From an uncultured virus (IMG/VR IMGVR_UViG_3300030688_000011) (Duplodnaviria > Heunggongvirae > Uroviricota > Caudoviricetes), in IMG/VR virus record IMGVR_UViG_3300030688_000011: a DNA stretch of 64,000 nucleotides, one strand, 5' to 3'. Below, in pieces: positions 12,361 through 35,378 of the stretch. The notes under the pieces are model-generated. The model was given only the letters and a program-made list of their open reading frames with translations, did not search any database and was not told the DNA's origin. The stretch's first letter is position 1, and each line of letters begins with the position of its first letter. A program made the translations under genes and the position numbers.

Positions 12361-13249
12361 GTCAAGGTGATTGTACCACAGTCTTACAAAAGTTCAACCT
12401 CAAGTATCGCCCTCTCGTACTCCTCGACTTCGGAGTGCCAACTCTCAGCGTAGGTCTCCATGATACCACTCTTGGAGTCCGGCCAGTCGCCGTACACTGT
12501 GGTCTCCATCTCATGAGTTGAGATGTCGTCGCCATGACGCTTCAGGTACGTGAGTCGGAGTCGGAACATCACACCTCGATGAGGGCCGATGACTGGTAGG
12601 GTTTGAACTCATCGAAGAATTCGCCTAGTTTCCCTTTGAACTTCTTCGACCGCACCGTGTGATTCCGCCAGTTCACACCGGCCTTCGTCAGACGGATAGC
12701 CGCACATTGAGACCACCACACCATGGGGGAGGGTCGTTTCCCTTAGAGAGAATGTTGCGACAAGCCAACAGGTCGAGGACTAGGCTTCGCTTTGCTTCAC
12801 CAATCTCGGCTGCTGTGTACTTAGGATTTGAGAACACTTGCTTGACCTGACCACGTGGGTACATCTTTCGTGCCATTTTATCTGCCCAGTCTTCCATTTA
12901 TCGCCTACCAGCCTTGGCGTCCCGCTCGGCTCTAAACTCTTGGATGGTCGGGCCGATGTAGCGGACAAGCTTGCGGGTACCATCCTCTTCCCTGACGTAG
13001 AACGCATCGGGAGGGAGTTCCATCAGGGCGTCTTCCAAAGATTTTTGGGTGGACTTCATAGCTTCAAGAGCGTGGACGGCGACGAACACGGTAGCTTCAT
13101 CTTCACTGAAACCGTTGACTGTCGCCATGTCAAAGCACCGTTGTGCGACGTGCTCGGTAGTGCATAGCAACCTGAGTCGTTCACGGTAGCCTTCAAGTAT
13201 ACCGGCCTTCAGAGCGGTGTCCATGGGTTCCATTTGCTCTCCTGAAATA

Positions 13250-13336
13250 TGGTGACCCCGGCAGGATTCGAACCTGCGATGTGCTTTCACACGCGAGTTT
13301 AGGAAACTCGTGCCTTGTCCGCTAGACTACGGGGTC
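13250..13336 (-). tRNA. tRNA-Arg(CCT) with long variable arm
   Basis: GACCCCG/CGGGGTC-ACCA; arm CGAGT-TTCCTAA-ACTCG; 16-nt variable region; TTCGAAT loop. Confidence 0.88.
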
Positions 13337-13959: not shown

Positions 13960-14179
13960 TCAGGTACAGGTTATTGTCGCTCGACCCACAAACTGCGATG
14001 CCGTCCAGATACCACTTACACTCTTGAGACCCGATGGTGCCGACCAGCCGGGGGCACTCTTCAAAATCCACCATGTGAAGGCTCGTTACCCTGCGCCCGT
14101 CCATTGTCTCCGCCTCGGTGATCCCTCGTGTCGGCACTACCACCGTACTTACATCTAGGTTATTCATACTAGCTAATAC

Positions 14180-14262
14180 TGGAGGGCGCGACAGGATTCG
14201 AACCTGCATTTTCAATTCCACTTACGTTTAACGACTTAGAAGGTCGCCTCGATTACACACCC
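14180..14262 (-). ncRNA. atypical tRNA-like RNA (TCT anticodon arm, no normal D-arm)
   Basis: acceptor GGGTGTG/CGCGCCC-TCCA, T-arm GCAGG-TTCGAAT-CCTGT, arm GCGAC-CTTCTAA-GTCGT placed only 8 nt after the acceptor stem. Confidence 0.7.
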
Positions 14263-14514
14263 CAAAGGTTACGCTGCGATGTCTGTGGTTCTCTCGTTCT
14301 TGGATGACCTTACACACATCTTGGGTGCGTGAGACACGTTGACGAACGTGTCCCACTTCCCTTTGCACGCACACGTGTTGGGGTCTACCTTGTGCTCATC
14401 ATCGCCCAGCAAGTCCTGCAACTTGGTCTGGCCGAAGAGCATACGTACGATAGGTGTGATAAACATATGTGTTCTCCTGTCAGTTGAATTCGTTTATAAT
14501 GCGTGGATGAAACA

Positions 14515-14736
14515 TCAGGATGCCTTGACGAAGGTCCCGCCATCCAGAGCCTTGCGAATGTACCGCATGAGAGTAATGGCCTTCTCGGTTGAGTTCAAGG
14601 TGGCTCCGCCAATGTCTTCGAGCGAGACGGGAAAGGCATATTCGACGCCATCCACCGTTACGTTGTAAAAGGCGTTACCCGTCCTATAGAACGAAAACCT
14701 TGCGGTGTTGTCCTTCACAATCTTCTTGATGTCCAT
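14515..14736 (-). CDS. small hypothetical protein
   Basis: AGGA RBS; MDIKKIVKDNTARF...LMRYIRKAL. Confidence 0.6.
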   Translation of the reverse strand: MDIKKIVKDNTARFSFYRTGNAFYNVTVDGVEYAFPVSLEDIGGATLNSTEKAITLMRYIRKALDGGTFVKAS

Positions 14737-19481: not shown

Positions 19482-19568
19482 TGGTGCGTCCGGAGGGATT
19501 CGAACCCCCGTTGGGAATCTCTCCCGCTGATTAAGAGTCAGGTGCATAAGCCACTCTGCCACGAACGC
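19482..19568 (-). tRNA. tRNA with CTT anticodon on a class II (Leu-like) body
   Basis: D-arm GCA-GAGTGGCTTA-TGC, CTGA-CTCTTAA-TCAG, V-arm GGGA-GAGAT-TCCC, A73-CCA. Confidence 0.85.
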
Positions 19569-19862: not shown

Positions 19863-19953
19863 TGGCTCAGGGGGAGGGACTCGAACCCTCAGAGGGAATG
19901 GCTACCCGCTTGGTTAACAGCCAAGTACGCTGCCAGTTACGTTTTACCCCTGA
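19863..19953 (-). tRNA. tRNA-Asn(GTT) with long variable region and atypical D-arm
   Basis: TCAGGGG/CCCCTGA-GCCA; CTTGG-CTGTTAA-CCAAG; 18-nt variable region. Confidence 0.8.
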
Positions 19954-20078: not shown

Positions 20079-20190
20079 GTAGGTGTCACCCTTCTTGTGC
20101 TACTAAACCGGGAGGGCTTGGGATTTCACGAACGTTCCACAGACGGGAGCTACCCGCCAGATGTCTATCCGTCCCTCTTAGTCCCTTTCG

Positions 20191-20258
20191 TTCACTTGGC
20201 GGGAGTCGAACCCGCATCAGCCGCCAACGCGGCTGCTCTACCATTGAGCTACAAGCAA
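20191..20258 (-). ncRNA. tRNA-like RNA without an anticodon loop
   Basis: normal D-arm GCTC-AATGGTA-GAGC and T-arm GCGGG-TTCGACT-CCCGC, but arm GCCGC-GTTG-GCGGC; no CCA. Confidence 0.65.
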
Positions 20259-20809: not shown

Positions 20810-21460
20810 TTGAGTATGCAAACTAAAACAAAAGTCACTTGCCTAACTTGCCAAGTAGAATTTGAAAAGGCTGAAGCTGAAATCCGTAGATCATCTCCCG
20901 GTCGTAACTTCTGCTCACGTTCCTGCTCAGCCAAACTCCGTCGTGGTCTTCAAAGAAACCCACCAAAACCTCGTACTTGTAAATCCTGCGGGGCTGAGTT
21001 TACATGCTCAACATCCCACCGGTCTTACACCTTCTGCTCCCCATGTTCTGGAAACAAGGAACATCTACTTACTCCCCACCTTCGGCTACGCAAACGCCAC
21101 GGGTCTAATGAGTATATCCGAGTAGACTTCCGCCTTATGACTCTTGAAGAGGCGATGAATTCACCTTATGTAAAAGGCAAGCACCGTAGCCACATCTATG
21201 ATTTCGTCAGGCGGTTCAACCGTTCATGGAACAAACACCTTCTCAAACTACCTTGCTTGTACTGTGGTTATAGTAAGCACAGTGAACTTGCTCACATCAA
21301 AGGCATAAAAACCTTCTCACTTGATTCTACTCTCGGCGAAATCAACAATGTCAGCAACGTCTTACCTCTGTGTCGTAACTGCCACTGGGAGTTTGATAAC
21401 GACCTCCTATCGCTTGAAACCATAAAGTTGGTGCGCCCGAGAGGATTCGAACCTCTGTAG
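20810..21460 (+). CDS. HNH endonuclease with Zn-binding repeats, antisense to tRNA operon
   Basis: FCSRSC; CLYCGYSKH..LAHIK...N...LCRNCHWEFD; 3' end overlaps tRNA-Arg(ACG). Confidence 0.82.
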   Translation: MSMQTKTKVTCLTCQVEFEKAEAEIRRSSPGRNFCSRSCSAKLRRGLQRNPPKPRTCKSCGAEFTCSTSHRSYTFCSPCSGNKEHLLTPHLRLRKRHGSNEYIRVDFRLMTLEEAMNSPYVKGKHRSHIYDFVRRFNRSWNKHLLKLPCLYCGYSKHSELAHIKGIKTFSLDSTLGEINNVSNVLPLCRNCHWEFDNDLLSLETIKLVRPRGFEPL

Positions 21461-21517
21461 AGAACTCTCGTTCAACAGATTCGTAGTCTGGTGCCTCATC
21501 CGCTAGGCTACGGGCGC
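21429..21517 (-). tRNA. tRNA-Arg(ACG) with long variable arm
   Basis: CAGA-CTACGAA-TCTG; V-arm GAAC-GAGA-GTTC; A20; CCA. Confidence 0.88.
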
Positions 21518-21803: not shown

Positions 21804-21893
21804 TGGTGTACCCGGCAGGACTCGAACCTGCATGAGACTTTCGTCAGCCCACCTTCGGAGGGTGGCGGCTAATCCAATTCACACCACGGGTAC
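21804..21893 (-). tRNA. tRNA-Arg(CCG) with long variable arm
   Basis: CCACC-CTCCGAA-GGTGG; V-arm GAC-GAAA-GTC; CCA. Confidence 0.85.
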
Positions 21894-31529: not shown

Positions 31530-32249
31530 TTGAACTACGTAGGTCTTATACAGGAGCCCTACACCATGACACTCGTAACCCTCATTTGTTCGAAATGTGG
31601 TAAAGAATTCGAAAGACCACTGAAAACTCACAACCGTAATTTACGTTTAGGCTACACGACGGCCCAGTGCAGTGCGACCTGTCAAGTGGAACACCTCCGC
31701 CCAAAACCATGTGAACATTGTGGAAACACCACAACTAATCCAAGATTTTGTTCATCTAGATGTAATGCTTTAGCTACCTCCAAGTTCAAACCAAAACGGC
31801 CAAAACTTGGTCATTGCCGAGTATGTGGTGACTCAATCAGTAGCCAGAGAGTATATTGCAAGACTTGTAGAAAACTAGCGGTTTCCAATTCTAAAGATTG
31901 GTCGGGGGTGACATTAGGGGAATTACGTATCAAAAGAAAAGCTAATGGGGACGCTACTGTTTGGGCACACGCCAAAAGGGTGTTTTTCGCCTCCCCTCTA
32001 CCGAAAGAATGTTGGATATGCGGATACTTTAAGCATATCGACGTGTGTCACATCAAGCCTGTGGCTGGGTTTGCGGATGCCACACTTATCTGTGAGATAA
32101 ATAACCTGAAAAACCTAATGGGTCTTTGTCGTAATCATCATTGGGAGTTCGATCATGGACAGCTATCCAAAGAGGATAAAGAAAAATTGGTACTCCCGGT
32201 AGGATTCGAACCTACGTCTTGCTCTAATCTGGAGCTAAACCGGTTATAA
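31530..32249 (+). CDS. HNH endonuclease with Zn-binding repeats, antisense to tRNA operon 2
   Basis: CWICGYFKHIDVCHIK...INNLKNLMGLCRNHHWEFD; likely start ATG 31566; 3' end overlaps tRNA-Ile(TAT). Confidence 0.82.
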   Translation: MNYVGLIQEPYTMTLVTLICSKCGKEFERPLKTHNRNLRLGYTTAQCSATCQVEHLRPKPCEHCGNTTTNPRFCSSRCNALATSKFKPKRPKLGHCRVCGDSISSQRVYCKTCRKLAVSNSKDWSGVTLGELRIKRKANGDATVWAHAKRVFFASPLPKECWICGYFKHIDVCHIKPVAGFADATLICEINNLKNLMGLCRNHHWEFDHGQLSKEDKEKLVLPVGFEPTSCSNLELNRL

Positions 32250-32282
32250 GGCGGTTGCGTTAGACCACTACGCTACGGGAGC
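32188..32282 (-). tRNA. tRNA-Ile(TAT) with long variable arm
   Basis: ACCG(C)-CTTATAA-(C)CGGT; V-arm GCTC-CAGATTA-GAGC; CCA. Confidence 0.85.
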
Positions 32283-32292
32283 CTAAGCTTTT

Positions 32293-32379
32293 TGGTAGCG
32301 GCGGAGGGATTCGAACCCTCATGCCCCGAAGGGCCAGAGATTTTAAGTCTCCTGTGTATACCGTTCCAGCCACGCCGCC
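32293..32379 (-). tRNA. tRNA-Leu(TAA)
   Basis: GGAGA-CTTAAAA-TCTCT; class II; A73-CCA. Confidence 0.92.
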
Positions 32380-32720
32380 ATATTTATTCAATTGGAGTTG
32401 GGTATTCGTAAGCGGGTTGTGAAAGCGGTGTTCATTCTTTGAATCCTGTCCTTGTGCGTAGTGGAATCGACTTCGGTTGCGGCGGGTTCTCCACCACATG
32501 CTTGAGCCGCTCAGCGAACTCAGCTTCGTACTCTACTTCAGCTTCCTTGACCTTAGCCAATAACTCAGGGTCACTCGGCTCAGTCTTCACATAGGCGGCG
32601 AGAAGCTTGAGGAACTTTGTCCTCGCTTCCTTCACCGGCTCGTAGCTGTTCAACTGATCTACTTGCTCATCGGAAATTTGGCCTTCGTTCATCTAACCCA
32701 ATACTCCCAATTTGAAATGT

Positions 32721-32797
32721 TGGTGCGCCCTCTCGGGCTTGAACCGAGAACCCCCGCGTTATGAGCACGTCGCTCTGACCAATTGAGCTAAGGGCAC
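32721..32797 (-). tRNA. tRNA-Ile2/Met(CAT), probably Ile2
   Basis: GTGCCCTTAGCTC..., CGTG-CTCATAA-CGCG; CCA. Confidence 0.88.
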
Positions 32798-33133
32798 TAA
32801 TCTTCATCATACTCGAAATACCCGGCCACGTTACAAATGGCTTCGATGAACTCGTAAGCGTTCTCAATCACCCGGTCGGACTGGTACACCGCTTCAGAGC
32901 ACACAATCTTCTGGTCAGCGATGAACTTCTCAGCGATTTGTAGAACTCTTTCAGCCTTCTCTTCGCGGGTCATACGTTCCTATAAACATGCACATCCGGT
33001 CAGGGTTCAATCCACGTCGCCTTGCGGCAGTTCCCCGTACCCAACTGAGGGTTCTTCTCACCAGAAAGCCAAGTACCCGTCGATGCTTGGTAGTATCAGT
33101 CTTGCCTGACTGCTTCACGGCGTATGTACAAAC

Positions 33134-33226
33134 TGGAGGAAGGTGTCGGATTCGAACCCACGGTGCCTATCACTAGGACACTCTAGTTTTCAAGACTAGC
33201 GCAATCGACCGCTCTGCCAACCTTCC
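33134..33226 (-). tRNA. tRNA-Ser(TGA)
   Basis: CTAGT-CTTGAAA-ACTAG; long V-arm; U73-CCA. Confidence 0.92.
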
Positions 33227-33433
33227 CAAACTTTTATTTCCTAGTGTAGACAATGCTCAACTGCGGGTCATTGTCCTTGACAACTGCCATCAAGAGCCCA
33301 CCGTACCTGCTCTTGTAATACTTGACTGCCTTCGTATCCGAAGGGAACTCCTGTGCTGGAATCTGCTCATTGAACAGATGACCGTCGCACTCGGGATAGT
33401 ACAGTTCGCTCATGCAATACCTTTCATAAATTT

Positions 33434-33521
33434 TGGCGGAGGCGGAGGGAGTTCAACCCCCAAGTCCTTGCGGAACGTCCCGTTTCGAGCGGGGTGGGCT
33501 TAGCACATGCCCAACGCCTCC
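33434..33521 (-). tRNA. tRNA-Ser(CGA) with swapped elbow pair
   Basis: CCCG-CTCGAAA-CGGG; D-loop ATGTGCTAA and T-loop TTGAACT. Confidence 0.85.
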
Positions 33522-33526
33522 AATTT

Positions 33527-33612
33527 TGGCGGAGAGTCCGGGGGTCGAACCCGGTCAACCTTGCGGTTGTACAGTTTAGCAAACTGCTGCATTACCGTCC
33601 TGCCCACTCTCC
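33527..33612 (-). tRNA. tRNA-Ser(GCT)
   Basis: GCAGT-TTGCTAA-ACTGT; long V-arm; G73-CCA. Confidence 0.92.
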
Positions 33613-33956
33613 AAACTTTTACGAACCACCGAACCGTTCGAGCTTCTTCACCATGGCATCCAATTCGATGCCCCTCAGGAACTCGGGCCGGTTGGCCTGA
33701 ACCGTCAGACCACAGCACTCACAGGTGCTGCTCTTCCGGTCGTACCCTGCTGCAACCTCACCAATCAATCGTGCCGCTTGCAACAGCTTCGCTGCGTTGT
33801 GCTCGGCCTCAGTGGCCTTGCGAATGTGTGTCATGCTCATAAATGCCTCCTGTTGGTACATACGCTGGGGGCGGCTTAGAATTAACCCCTCACTTGTATA
33901 TGTCCAGCTTTCAGGCAATATGAGCGGCTGACCTCACATTTATTTTGGCGTTGAAC

Positions 33957-34406
33957 TTAATTCTGATACAACTTGATTTCAAACGGCGGGACTTCCATCT
34001 TCCCGTATGGCTTGAACTCATCAAATCTGTGCTCCCCCGGCTTGGCCTCAACAAAGTAGCCAATCGTCTCCGGGTATACCTGCCCAAACTTCTCACGCAT
34101 GTACGTGAACCGCTTCTTCTCCGCGTCCCACCGGGCTACTGTGGCGTTGCGGCACTTCCCGTGGTAGTACGCTTCGTGCTCAAGTTCCTCCAGCGGTACC
34201 ATCGGCATCCCCGGCTTATGCTTCTCCGGTGTCGGACACTCCAGATAGCAGTTACCCTCTCGGACATAGGCATCAGCCTCTTCACGTGGAGTACCCCTGC
34301 CCACCATACGTTCCGCGACCGCTTCGGCTTCCTTACCGAAGACCCGCTCAGCACCACACTGCACACAAATCTTCCACTGTACATCCACGTACGTATCGAA
34401 CTTCAT
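33957..34406 (-). CDS. hypothetical protein
   Basis: YYHGKCRNATVARWD...FTYMREKFG. Confidence 0.65.
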   Translation of the reverse strand: MKFDTYVDVQWKICVQCGAERVFGKEAEAVAERMVGRGTPREEADAYVREGNCYLECPTPEKHKPGMPMVPLEELEHEAYYHGKCRNATVARWDAEKKRFTYMREKFGQVYPETIGYFVEAKPGEHRFDEFKPYGKMEVPPFEIKLYQN

Positions 34407-34412
34407 GCAAAC

Positions 34413-34518
34413 CTTTCTGTGCTGGATTCGAACCAGCGGTACCCCGGTACTTCGTGCTATGACACTTCCCGAAGAACTTCATCATAGTTAGGTTTAAGCC
34501 GCTCACCCAACAGTAAAG
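34413..34518 (-). ncRNA. tRNA-like RNA with expanded anticodon arm, no CCA
   Basis: D-arm GGT-GAGCGGCTTAA-ACC, T-arm GCTGG-TTCGAAT-CCAGC, central CTATGA...TCATAG helix. Confidence 0.55.
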
Positions 34519-34532
34519 TAAAGCTTACAAGT

Positions 34533-34622
34533 TGGCGGAGAAAGAGGGATTCGAACCCTCGATACCCTTGCGAGTATGCCACCTTTCCAAGGTGGTGCAA
34601 TCGACCACTCTGCCATCTCTCC
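34533..34622 (-). tRNA. tRNA-Ser(GGA)
   Basis: CCACC-TTGGAAA-GGTGG; long V-arm; G73-CCA. Confidence 0.93.
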
Positions 34623-34628
34623 AAAACT

Positions 34629-34655
34629 AAAAAGCCACCCGAGTTGGGCGGCTTT
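34629..34655 (-). terminator. attenuator intrinsic terminator of tRNA operon 2
   Basis: AAAGCCGCCC-AACTC-GGGTGGCTTTTT. Confidence 0.88.
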
Positions 34656-34693
34656 GGTATCTTGCTGAAGTCTGTGTTTACTTATCCACAGTA

Positions 34694-34771
34694 TCAAACG
34701 TTCACCACGCCGCCGCCAGTCCATGAACTGGATGAGGTAGAGCTTGACGATATGGATAACGTGTTCTTCAT
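34694..34771 (-). CDS. leader peptide 2, MKNTLSISSSSTSSSSWTGGGVVNV (leaderless)
   Basis: ATG 6 nt after TATTAT; 9 Ser codons using all six Ser triplets plus TTA and ATA; overlaps antiterminator strand GGCGGCGTGGT. Confidence 0.85.
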   Translation of the reverse strand: MKNTLSISSSSTSSSSWTGGGVVNV

Positions 34772-34777
34772 GTCTGT

Positions 34778-34808
34778 ATAATACTACCAAAGTTCGAAAA
34801 GTGAACAA
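34778..34808 (-). promoter_or_regulatory. promoter of tRNA operon 2 (TTGTTC-N19-TATTAT)
   Basis: motif copy. Confidence 0.78.
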
Positions 34809-35378
34809 CTATTTTTTGAATTATTTCGCTGTAGCTTAGAATCTCCCCGGCTTCAAGGGCTTGCTCGTACAGGATACGGGCCTCTTCATGGGTGTAGGCG
34901 ATTGGTGACATCGGCTCCTACTGTCTCGCTACGTGCTCACGCTTTGCCAGCACCCGACGCAGGATTACATCGTAGGGCAGCAGAACTTCGTTGAACTCTT
35001 TGACGGCCCATTCGTTGCCATCACCCGGCTCCAGATGAGCCCCAACGAATCCCATCCGCTTGGTGAGAGCACGACGGACGCCCAAAAGCCGCTTAGTGTT
35101 CAGCTTTTCGAGTTGCTCTTCGGTCAGTAGTTTCATTTCTGCCTCCGTGCTTCACGTTCTTCTTCGGCTTCAATCTCACGTTCCAGTTTGCACTCCGGGC
35201 ATAGACACTCCCAGCCTACAGGCTCGAAGGGCTCACCACAGTTTTTGCAGTTCTTAAGTCTCACTTAATGTTCTCTAAGCACTTGAGAAGAGTTGCGTGT
35301 GACAGCTTCATGCTCTTCCTCCTGACTCGTGGCGTTCTCAGGAATGACCACAACCATATGAACTTGCTTGTCCGCCAT

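Follow-up and report, generated by a model that had tools for sequence, protein, structure and literature searches.

The element described here lies on the minus strand, at positions 34822-34623, of a 64,000-nucleotide stretch of DNA from an uncultured Caudoviricetes virus (IMG/VR record IMGVR_UViG_3300030688_000011). This whole stretch is called the window, and coordinates are window positions unless another record is named. Along this strand, a promoter-like site is followed by an open reading frame (ORF) of 25 codons, an intrinsic terminator, and a tRNA-Ser(GGA) gene, which is the first of seven tRNA genes. tRNA-Ser(GGA) begins at 34622, directly past a T-run that ends at 34623, which leaves no space for a tRNA promoter of its own. 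The window overlaps the end of an IMG/VR record of 139,754 bp (G001) with 100% identity; the completeness of this record according to CheckV (44%) suggests a full phage genome of about 300 kb, and genome-wide counts were taken over 173.6 kb of it. A gene for a NAD-dependent ligase with at most 32% identity to any cultured phage ligase is located just upstream of the leader. When cultured relatives of the leader region were sought by blastn among 50,697 phage records, the matches covered the tRNA-Ser part alone, at most 17% of the query. The parts of the element are as follows.

34778-34822, minus strand: promoter-like element (consensus scan and family profile), putative promoter
34771-34694, minus strand: leader ORF, 25 codons and a TGA stop codon, MKNTLSISSSSTSSSSWTGGGVVNV (ORF list; homologs in the relatives L002, L013, and L014)
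34724-34759, minus strand: regulatory codons 5-16 (TTA, ATA, one ACC, and otherwise Ser codons, with all six represented)
34746-34755, minus strand: region 1, CCAUAUCGUC, within the Ser codons; pairs with region 2 in minimum-energy folds if ribosome-free
34703-34714, minus strand: region 2, GGCGGCGUGGU, codons 20-23; 5' arm of the antiterminator
34646-34659, minus strand: region 3, AUACCAAAGCCGCCC; shared by the antiterminator (as 3' arm) and the terminator (as 5' arm)
34623-34640, minus strand: region 4, GGGUGGCUUU, the 3' arm of the terminator, with the T-run UUAGUUUU; the tRNA begins at the next base

The tRNA genes downstream were called with ARAGORN.

34533-34622, minus strand: tRNA-Ser(GGA), first gene past the terminator
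33527-33612, minus strand: tRNA-Ser(GCT)
33434-33521, minus strand: tRNA-Ser(CGA)
33134-33226, minus strand: tRNA-Ser(TGA)
32721-32797, minus strand: tRNA(CAT), candidate Ile2
32293-32379, minus strand: tRNA-Leu(TAA)
32188-32282, minus strand: tRNA-Ile(TAT)

The tRNA(CAT) may be an Ile2; its best matches in Escherichia coli are annotated tRNA-Ile genes, though at only 76% identity and E = 0.2. Codons 5-16 of the leader read TTA, TCC, ATA, TCG, TCA, AGC, TCT, ACC, TCA, TCC, AGT, TCA, and the stop codon occupies 34696-34694. A preliminary description, made from the letters of the window, had placed the ORF, the promoter-like site, and the terminator at these positions, had listed the seven tRNAs downstream, and had matched 11 of the 12 codons to the tRNAs. 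The ORF list, ARAGORN, and the scans returned each feature in its place, and a recount with standard wobble again gave 11 codons readable by the seven tRNAs, ACC being the exception. Over the 24 internal codons, 11 are cognate to the operon, compared with a background of 0.112 in long ORFs (binomial P = 2e-5).

Among the 1,101 short ATG ORFs of the phage sequence (15-45 codons, six frames), the leader ORF ranked first, with 11 codons cognate to this operon (operon 2) per 12-codon window; the runner-up had 10. The maximum in the 343 ORFs of at least 100 codons was 8, across 68,057 windows of 12 codons. This ranking can be set against a reading in which the product of the ORF is a working micropeptide rich in Ser, or the codon match is a coincidence. 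The terminator would then serve only to close a short transcript or to shield the ligase cluster upstream, and the tRNAs would arise by leaky read-through. Such a reading could point to the nine of 1,101 short ORFs that reach at least 8 operon-2 codons per 12-codon window, and to the upstream genes, for which the terminator scan gave no other terminator. It accounts poorly for a top scorer that stands exactly ahead of the matching tRNAs, for a promoter situated between the upstream genes and the terminator, for a C-terminal half that is unconserved as protein and yet keeps its complementarity to the terminator, and for a design that appears four times in one genome. We give it very little credence.

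The promoter-like element contains an A-tract (34818-34811), a -35-like TTGTTC (34808-34803), and two candidate -10 hexamers, TAGTAT (34786-34781, preceded by TGG) and TATTAT (34783-34778). The top call of the promoter scan was TTCACT-16-TATTAT at 34805-34778, with 9 of 12 consensus positions matched. The leader ATG is found 6-9 nt past the -10 hexamer, and the predicted 5' untranslated region is 0-4 nt long, varying with the hexamer chosen. The site would act as a sigma-70-like, host-type promoter, the mRNA would be leaderless or nearly so, and the leader would be translated without a Shine-Dalgarno sequence. A profile built from seven sites gave eight matches in the 173.6 kb, all on the minus strand and six of them at E < 0.01; these precede the Ser leader and three further leaders (attenuators 1-4, see below), a tRNA-Met, and an ordinary gene (window 63067). 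Since the tRNA-Met, which has no leader, and the ordinary gene use the same promoter family, the promoter appears to be general and the leaders to be add-ons. The element is also kept in L002, L013, and L014.

Two further observations concern this promoter region. In G001, a tRNA(CAT) gene (L018 5436-5490, minus strand) starts 5 nt past a -10 hexamer of the family, with neither leader ORF nor terminator, so not every tRNA of the phage is gated. In the window, an upstream 47-aa ORF (34768-34911, minus strand) crosses the promoter and ends in an ATGA that overlaps the leader ATG. This overlap stems from a run of six A's, present in all copies of this phage (window, L001, and L011); L013 and L014 have five A's, and the corresponding upstream ORF stops at a TAG within the A-tract. 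The overlap could couple translation of the leader to read-through transcripts arriving from upstream.

Relatives of the locus were found with the ligase and with the gene for a 149-aa protein downstream of tRNA-Ser(GGA). L001, L008, and L011 are identical copies, and L002, L013, and L014 are diverged relatives, the first an IMG/VR record whose ligase is 79% identical and the other two metagenome contigs. Four distinct versions were compared, namely the window (equal to L011 and G001), L002, L013, and L014. The homologs of the leader in the three relatives are listed here.

L002 12334-12414: leader homolog, MKNMISISSSSSSSSTSGWDGMGVCA
L013 3719-3811: leader homolog, MKNTLSISTSSSSSSSSTGRGGGGSVDTWD
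L014 3164-3238: leader homolog, MKNTLTISSSSSSSSTGGDGMVCV

Common to the four versions are an MKN..IS start, a run of 8-10 Ser, a Gly-rich end, a terminator, and the tRNA-Ser(GGA). The spelling of the Ser runs differs between versions, TCN codons standing in for AGY codons and vice versa; ATA is present in all four and TTA in three of four. Of the sense frames, only that of the leader is open in all four versions. Because Ser is kept through the TCN/AGY exchange and one sense frame stays open throughout, selection appears to act on the decoding of the sense frame.

The same comparison bears on the proposal that the locus is a translation-independent RNA element, that is, a constitutive or protein- or RNA-controlled terminator or a processing signal, with the ORF untranslated. 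The absence of a Shine-Dalgarno sequence would fit such an element, as would the strong conservation of the TCCATATCG nucleotides, which are part of the helix between regions 1 and 2, and a terminator that is the equilibrium fold. Against it, the exchanges that preserve Ser alter 2-3 bases per codon, and the insertions and deletions in the ORF come in multiples of three. An Rfam scan of the region gave no T-box or leader family match at gathering score, nor any other; the single leader hit, Phe_leader (23.8 bits versus a gathering score of 55, E = 0.68), is at chance level. Furthermore, the codon-tRNA logic recurs in three leaders of unrelated sequence, two of them with a Shine-Dalgarno sequence. 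A translation-independent element is, in our judgment, quite unlikely.

An acidic antisense ORF (window 34644-34781, plus strand) was considered as a candidate gene and rejected: all genes around it run the other way, an open frame is automatic opposite a run of Ser, and at positions that are Ser in the sense frame it alternates between D/E and L/V. In L012, the 395 nt preceding the marker gene contain neither a tRNA nor a Ser-rich ORF, and L010, which encodes a distant relative of the 149-aa protein, has no tRNAs nearby. A looser leader pattern, run over the viral and genome collections, returned five viral and eight genome stretches and no new homolog; 11 of these were unrelated MKNI(L/I)SIS N-termini, and the remaining two, both viral, were the known leaders of G001 and of a relative, G002. 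In L002, a tRNA-Ser(GGA)-like sequence past the leader (12480-12568) was not called by ARAGORN and has a T-arm that looks degenerate; it may be a pseudogene. The ligase match in L002 (6001-8803) spans 2.8 kb compared with 1.9 kb in the window, and an insertion appears to split the gene.

The terminator stem (34655-34631) consists of 10 GC-rich base pairs followed by the T-run, and the hairpin has a predicted energy of about -17.5 kcal/mol. In the free transcript, CCAUAUCGUC of region 1 pairs with GGCGGCGUGG in codons 20-23, and the terminator forms between regions 3 and 4; this fold reaches -45.5 kcal/mol (z = -2.5; 4 of 200 shuffles were equally stable), and an equivalent of the 1:2 pairing was found in all four homologs. 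The antiterminator, defined as the minimum-energy fold of a transcript ending before the 3' arm of the terminator, joins GGCGGC (34714-34709) with GCCGCC (34652-34647) in the window, together with GUGGU and AUACC. The GGCGGC/GCCGCC helix had been proposed in the preliminary description and is present in this fold; the 1:2 hairpin is an addition to that model and completes a four-region design.

Folded without region 4, each of the four versions forms an antiterminator between region 2 and the 5' arm of the terminator. The core helices are GGCGGC/GCCGCC in the window, GGUGGU/GCCACC in L013, GGUGGC/GCCGCC in L014, and GGACGGC/GCCGUCC in L002; the changes include one exchange of C-G (window) for U-A (L013) and one inserted A-U pair (L002). 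The energy gained by forming the antiterminator was -12.0 kcal/mol in the window, -10.3 in L014, and -13.6 in L002, gains reached by 0, 3, and 1, respectively, of 200 dinucleotide shuffles of the upstream part. On a MAFFT alignment, 40 of 40 cells of the terminator pair and two pairs are compensatory. For the antiterminator, 79% of cells pair, compared with at most 50% at slid registers, and four pairs differ in both bases; the extra pair of L002 puts part of that sequence out of register here. The covariation of both structures is suggestive.

When a ribosome was simulated by masking the transcript as far as 13 nt beyond the A-site codon, the antiterminator remained intact in all four versions with the A site at codons 5-15. 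With the ribosome at codon 17 or later, the antiterminator was progressively lost, and at the stop codon nothing competed with the terminator, again in all four. In L013 the stop codon lies 25 nt past region 2, so masking occurs in transit. The layout, the codon match, and the alternative pairings, with their conservation and covariation, can be followed in the sequences and predicted folds of these versions. The attenuator proposed in the preliminary description is thereby borne out in layout by three relatives, with respelled Ser codons, compensatory changes, and a consistent stall geometry.

We consider it probable that the element is a ribosome-mediated leader-peptide transcription attenuator that gates the phage tRNA operon. 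Transcription would start a few bases before the ATG of the 25-codon ORF, at a host-type promoter. If decoding is fast, the ribosome would advance over region 2 (GGCGGCGUGGU) toward the stop codon; with region 2 covered, regions 3 and 4 would pair, and RNA polymerase would stop at the T-run, one base short of tRNA-Ser(GGA). Should any regulatory codon be read slowly, through scarcity of a cognate aminoacyl-tRNA that is uncommon in the host, diluted in late infection, or cut by host nucleases, the ribosome would stall over region 1. This would leave region 2 free to pair with region 3 before region 4 is made, and polymerase would read through into the Ser, Ile, and Leu tRNAs and the small ORFs among them. 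Without a ribosome, regions 1 and 2 would pair and transcription would terminate. The tRNAs produced would be those that relieve the stall, which would make the circuit a negative feedback matching tRNA supply to demand. The transcription start, ribosome-polymerase coupling, and the effect on regulation are predicted parts of this scheme.

Several points weigh against the attenuator. It is drawn entirely from sequence and predicted folds, and the start site of the leader transcript is a predicted one. The leader ORF has no Shine-Dalgarno sequence, 13 of its 24 codons are not cognate to the operon, and in L002 ATA stands in place of TTA despite a retained tRNA-Leu(TAA). Five small protein ORFs share the unit with the tRNAs, so its output is not tRNAs alone; these ORFs were not part of the model first described. 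Antisense frame -1 is likewise open in all versions, because this is automatic opposite a run of Ser. The antiterminator gain of L013 (-6.0 kcal/mol) is within the shuffle range, being matched by 44 of 200 shuffles. The covariation statistics, taken from four related versions, are weak, with the observed value reached by 66 of 500 shuffles for the terminator and by 17-36 of 500 for the antiterminator. Once the transcript is complete, the terminator state is favoured over the antiterminator state by 4-9 kcal/mol, also when nucleotides 1-34 are masked; with the terminator as equilibrium fold, the choice has to be made kinetically, during transcription. A kinetic choice of this kind is accepted for the trp attenuator.

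The protein ORFs of the unit are listed below.

33957-34406, minus strand: 149-aa ORF, phrog_18490 (no function attached)
33619-33840, minus strand: 73-aa ORF
33234-33413, minus strand: small ORF between tRNAs
32797-32973, minus strand: small ORF between tRNAs
32432-32692, minus strand: small ORF between tRNAs

Pfam and PHROGs scans of the ORFs inside the operon assigned a function to none, and the promoter-family and terminator scans gave no further match inside the tRNA block. Between the tRNA genes, tRNA-like remnants were seen (window 34411-34450 and about 33000-33120, minus strand), which weak Rfam hits overlap; one example is a T-arm-like GGTTCGAATCC stretch directly past tRNA-Ser(GGA). 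Some tRNAs other than Leu, Ser, and Tyr are unusually long, with 95 nt for Ile-TAT and 87-91 nt for Arg, Lys, and Asn. The extra length of Ile-TAT is located in the variable region, and the Ile-TAT of a relative has 79 nt. One tRNA was given a two-base anticodon by ARAGORN. The odd tRNAs are at 32188-32282, 13250-13336, 19482-19568, 19863-19953, 21429-21517, 21804-21893, and 20190-20258, all on the minus strand. HNH endonuclease genes occur at or between tRNA genes both in the window, where one (31530-32249, plus strand) is convergent with the operon and overlaps the end of tRNA-Ile, and in L002, where two ORFs (12610-13137 and 14097-14648, plus strand) were labelled HNH-like from their sequence alone. 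The record of phage T5 likewise annotates heg (HNH) genes among its tRNA genes.

Three other leaders ahead of tRNA genes were found in the same phage genome.

Window 22640-22385, minus strand: attenuator 1, ORF MTLKQTNSKRGMWQQHNRRSTGLCLSHGRVKIT, with family promoter, Shine-Dalgarno sequence, and terminator
L018 12126-12384 (G001 about 99126-99384), minus strand: leader 3, ORF MNRLSHNTTLGLSLYYLLSSGLVLSDRPS, outside the window
L018 7145-7410, minus strand: leader 4, ORF MKFTSPNPSFPPCPTLHGPDL (six Pro codons, two Phe codons), apparently leaderless

Attenuator 1, a leader for Lys, Gln, Asn, Arg, His, and Trp, precedes Trp, His, Arg, Asn, Gln, Lys, and Met tRNAs and is conserved in the relative G002 (L037 6470-6775, plus strand), where MTMKQTNSMRQWQKRNHRRATGLCSVMRDIKW has its own terminator and a like set of tRNAs. 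Leader 3 contains the Leu codons CTC, CTA, TTG, CTG, and CTT and the Tyr codons TAT and TAC, has a terminator nearly identical to that of the Ser leader, and directly precedes two tRNA-Tyr and five tRNA-Leu genes (TAG, CAG, CAA, GAG, and CAA). Leader 4 precedes tRNA-Pro(CGG), tRNA-Pro(TGG), and, further on, tRNA-Phe(GAA); hairpins are present, one of them terminator-like, but no clean T-run terminator. Two of these three leaders carry a Shine-Dalgarno sequence, and their sequences are unrelated. The preliminary description had called attenuators 1 and 2 unrelated but alike in logic. The shared logic holds, and the two are linked by one promoter family. It had also proposed a modular system and suggested a search for leaders covering amino acids missing from the first two operons; leader 3 (Tyr) and leader 4 (Pro and Phe), both outside the window, are codon-matched leaders of this kind.

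Codons cognate to their own block make up 15 of 32 in attenuator 1, 11 of 24 in the Ser leader, 10 of 28 in leader 3, and 6 of 20 in leader 4, and the off-diagonal counts of the 4 x 4 table of leaders and operons are 0-7. The true assignment ranked first of 24 permutations (sum 1.58, next best 1.03). Leu is divided between two units: the Ser unit has TTA and tRNA-Leu(TAA), and the leader 3 unit has the five remaining Leu codons along with Leu-TAG, CAG, CAA, and GAG. For a fifth tRNA block (Ala, Ala, Glu, Glu, Gly; L020 13126-14549), no matching leader was found within the 205 nt upstream to the end of the contig.

This partition bears on what such an attenuator would sense. A stalled ribosome cannot separate an uncharged tRNA from a missing one, as follows from trp and his attenuation. 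The same mechanism might respond to serine starvation or seryl-tRNA charging, with the small proteins as the relevant outputs or with the whole unit following the starvation state of the host, and the five ORFs without assigned function would leave room for this. Extra tRNA gives no relief of amino-acid starvation, however, and a leader with all six Ser codons and the rare TTA and ATA samples isoacceptors rather than one amino acid. Moreover, the four leaders match the anticodons of their own blocks, and the Leu codons are split by isoacceptor across two leaders. We regard starvation sensing as unlikely. Because the codons of all Ser isoacceptors and two rare codons are used, and codons are partitioned among four leaders, isoacceptor supply would be the sensed variable of the attenuator.

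Taken together, we lean slightly toward a codon-resolved tRNA supply network in which at least four attenuators divide the genetic code down to isoacceptors, each switching on only the block that relieves its own stall. In this way the phage would notice a decoding shortfall and make it good one block at a time. The shortfall could come from a mismatch with host codon usage, from decay of host tRNAs during infection, or from host anticodon nucleases.

Multivalent leader-peptide attenuators are known from amino-acid operons, such as thrL (Thr and Ile codons) and the ilvGMEDA leader (Ile, Leu, and Val), and related leaders include trpL, hisL, leuL, and pheL; Rfam has families for leaders of this type, among them Phe_leader. 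The phage element resembles them in its putative promoter, in a short ORF with a codon cluster for more than one amino acid, in the 1:2, 2:3, and 3:4 pairings, in an intrinsic terminator before the first regulated gene, and in a stop codon placed such that a finishing ribosome would mask region 2. It differs in that tRNA genes rather than biosynthetic enzymes would be regulated, with feedback on tRNA supply, and in that the leader samples every isoacceptor, through six Ser codons and the rare TTA and ATA, lacks a Shine-Dalgarno sequence, is apparently leaderless or nearly so, and shows no similarity to Rfam leader families. In E. coli, the pheM leader attenuator controls the pheST operon for phenylalanyl-tRNA synthetase. 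There too, a component of the translation apparatus is attenuated according to the supply of a cognate aminoacyl-tRNA, but the regulated gene is a cellular one for a synthetase and one amino acid is sensed. T-box riboswitches bind uncharged tRNA directly, and translation is not needed. They share with the phage element a terminator/antiterminator decision set by the state of a specific tRNA, whereas the phage element is far shorter than a T-box leader and has no T-box match. The general principle of leader-peptide attenuation is set out in PMC1183508. The mechanism proposed here would be this known one, differing in the tRNA gene targets, the leaderless start, and the phage setting.

The attenuator design is not universal, because the one region of phage T5 that was read, from promoter P14a to tRNA-Tyr (L039 15429-15600, minus strand), shows no codon-matched leader. 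There, a 4-codon minigene, MRSN, alone stands before the Tyr, Glu, Trp, and Phe tRNAs, and the T5 tRNAs are not sorted by amino acid. A full-text literature search, which covered few subscription journals, gave no description of leader-peptide control of tRNA genes. The available parts of three papers on tRNA-cleaving defences report that phage tRNAs overcome them (PMC10264068, PMC11464382, PMC11555353); these parts deal with the purpose of phage tRNAs and not with their regulation. In the available text of PMC10264068, the terms attenuat-, leader, terminator, and promoter have no occurrences. According to the same text, tRNA-Ser(GGA/TGA/CGA) is cut within the anticodon by nucleases (PMC10264068). 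Host nucleases acting on tRNA-Ser are a plausible selective reason for sensing tRNA loss.

The purpose of phage tRNAs has been debated for decades, as PMC10264068 puts it. If the attenuator is real, its cognate codons state that purpose: the tRNAs would be produced if, and only if, the ribosome is slow to read those codons. Sequence could then suggest in a simple way which host tRNAs a phage expects to lack or lose. Leader-peptide attenuation would then extend from amino-acid biosynthesis to the tRNA pool, and the question of purpose becomes directly testable by experiment. The compact modules could act as decoding-speed sensors for individual codons. If the network also holds, it would represent a counter-defence under regulation and the first case known in which tRNA genes are controlled by translational feedback.

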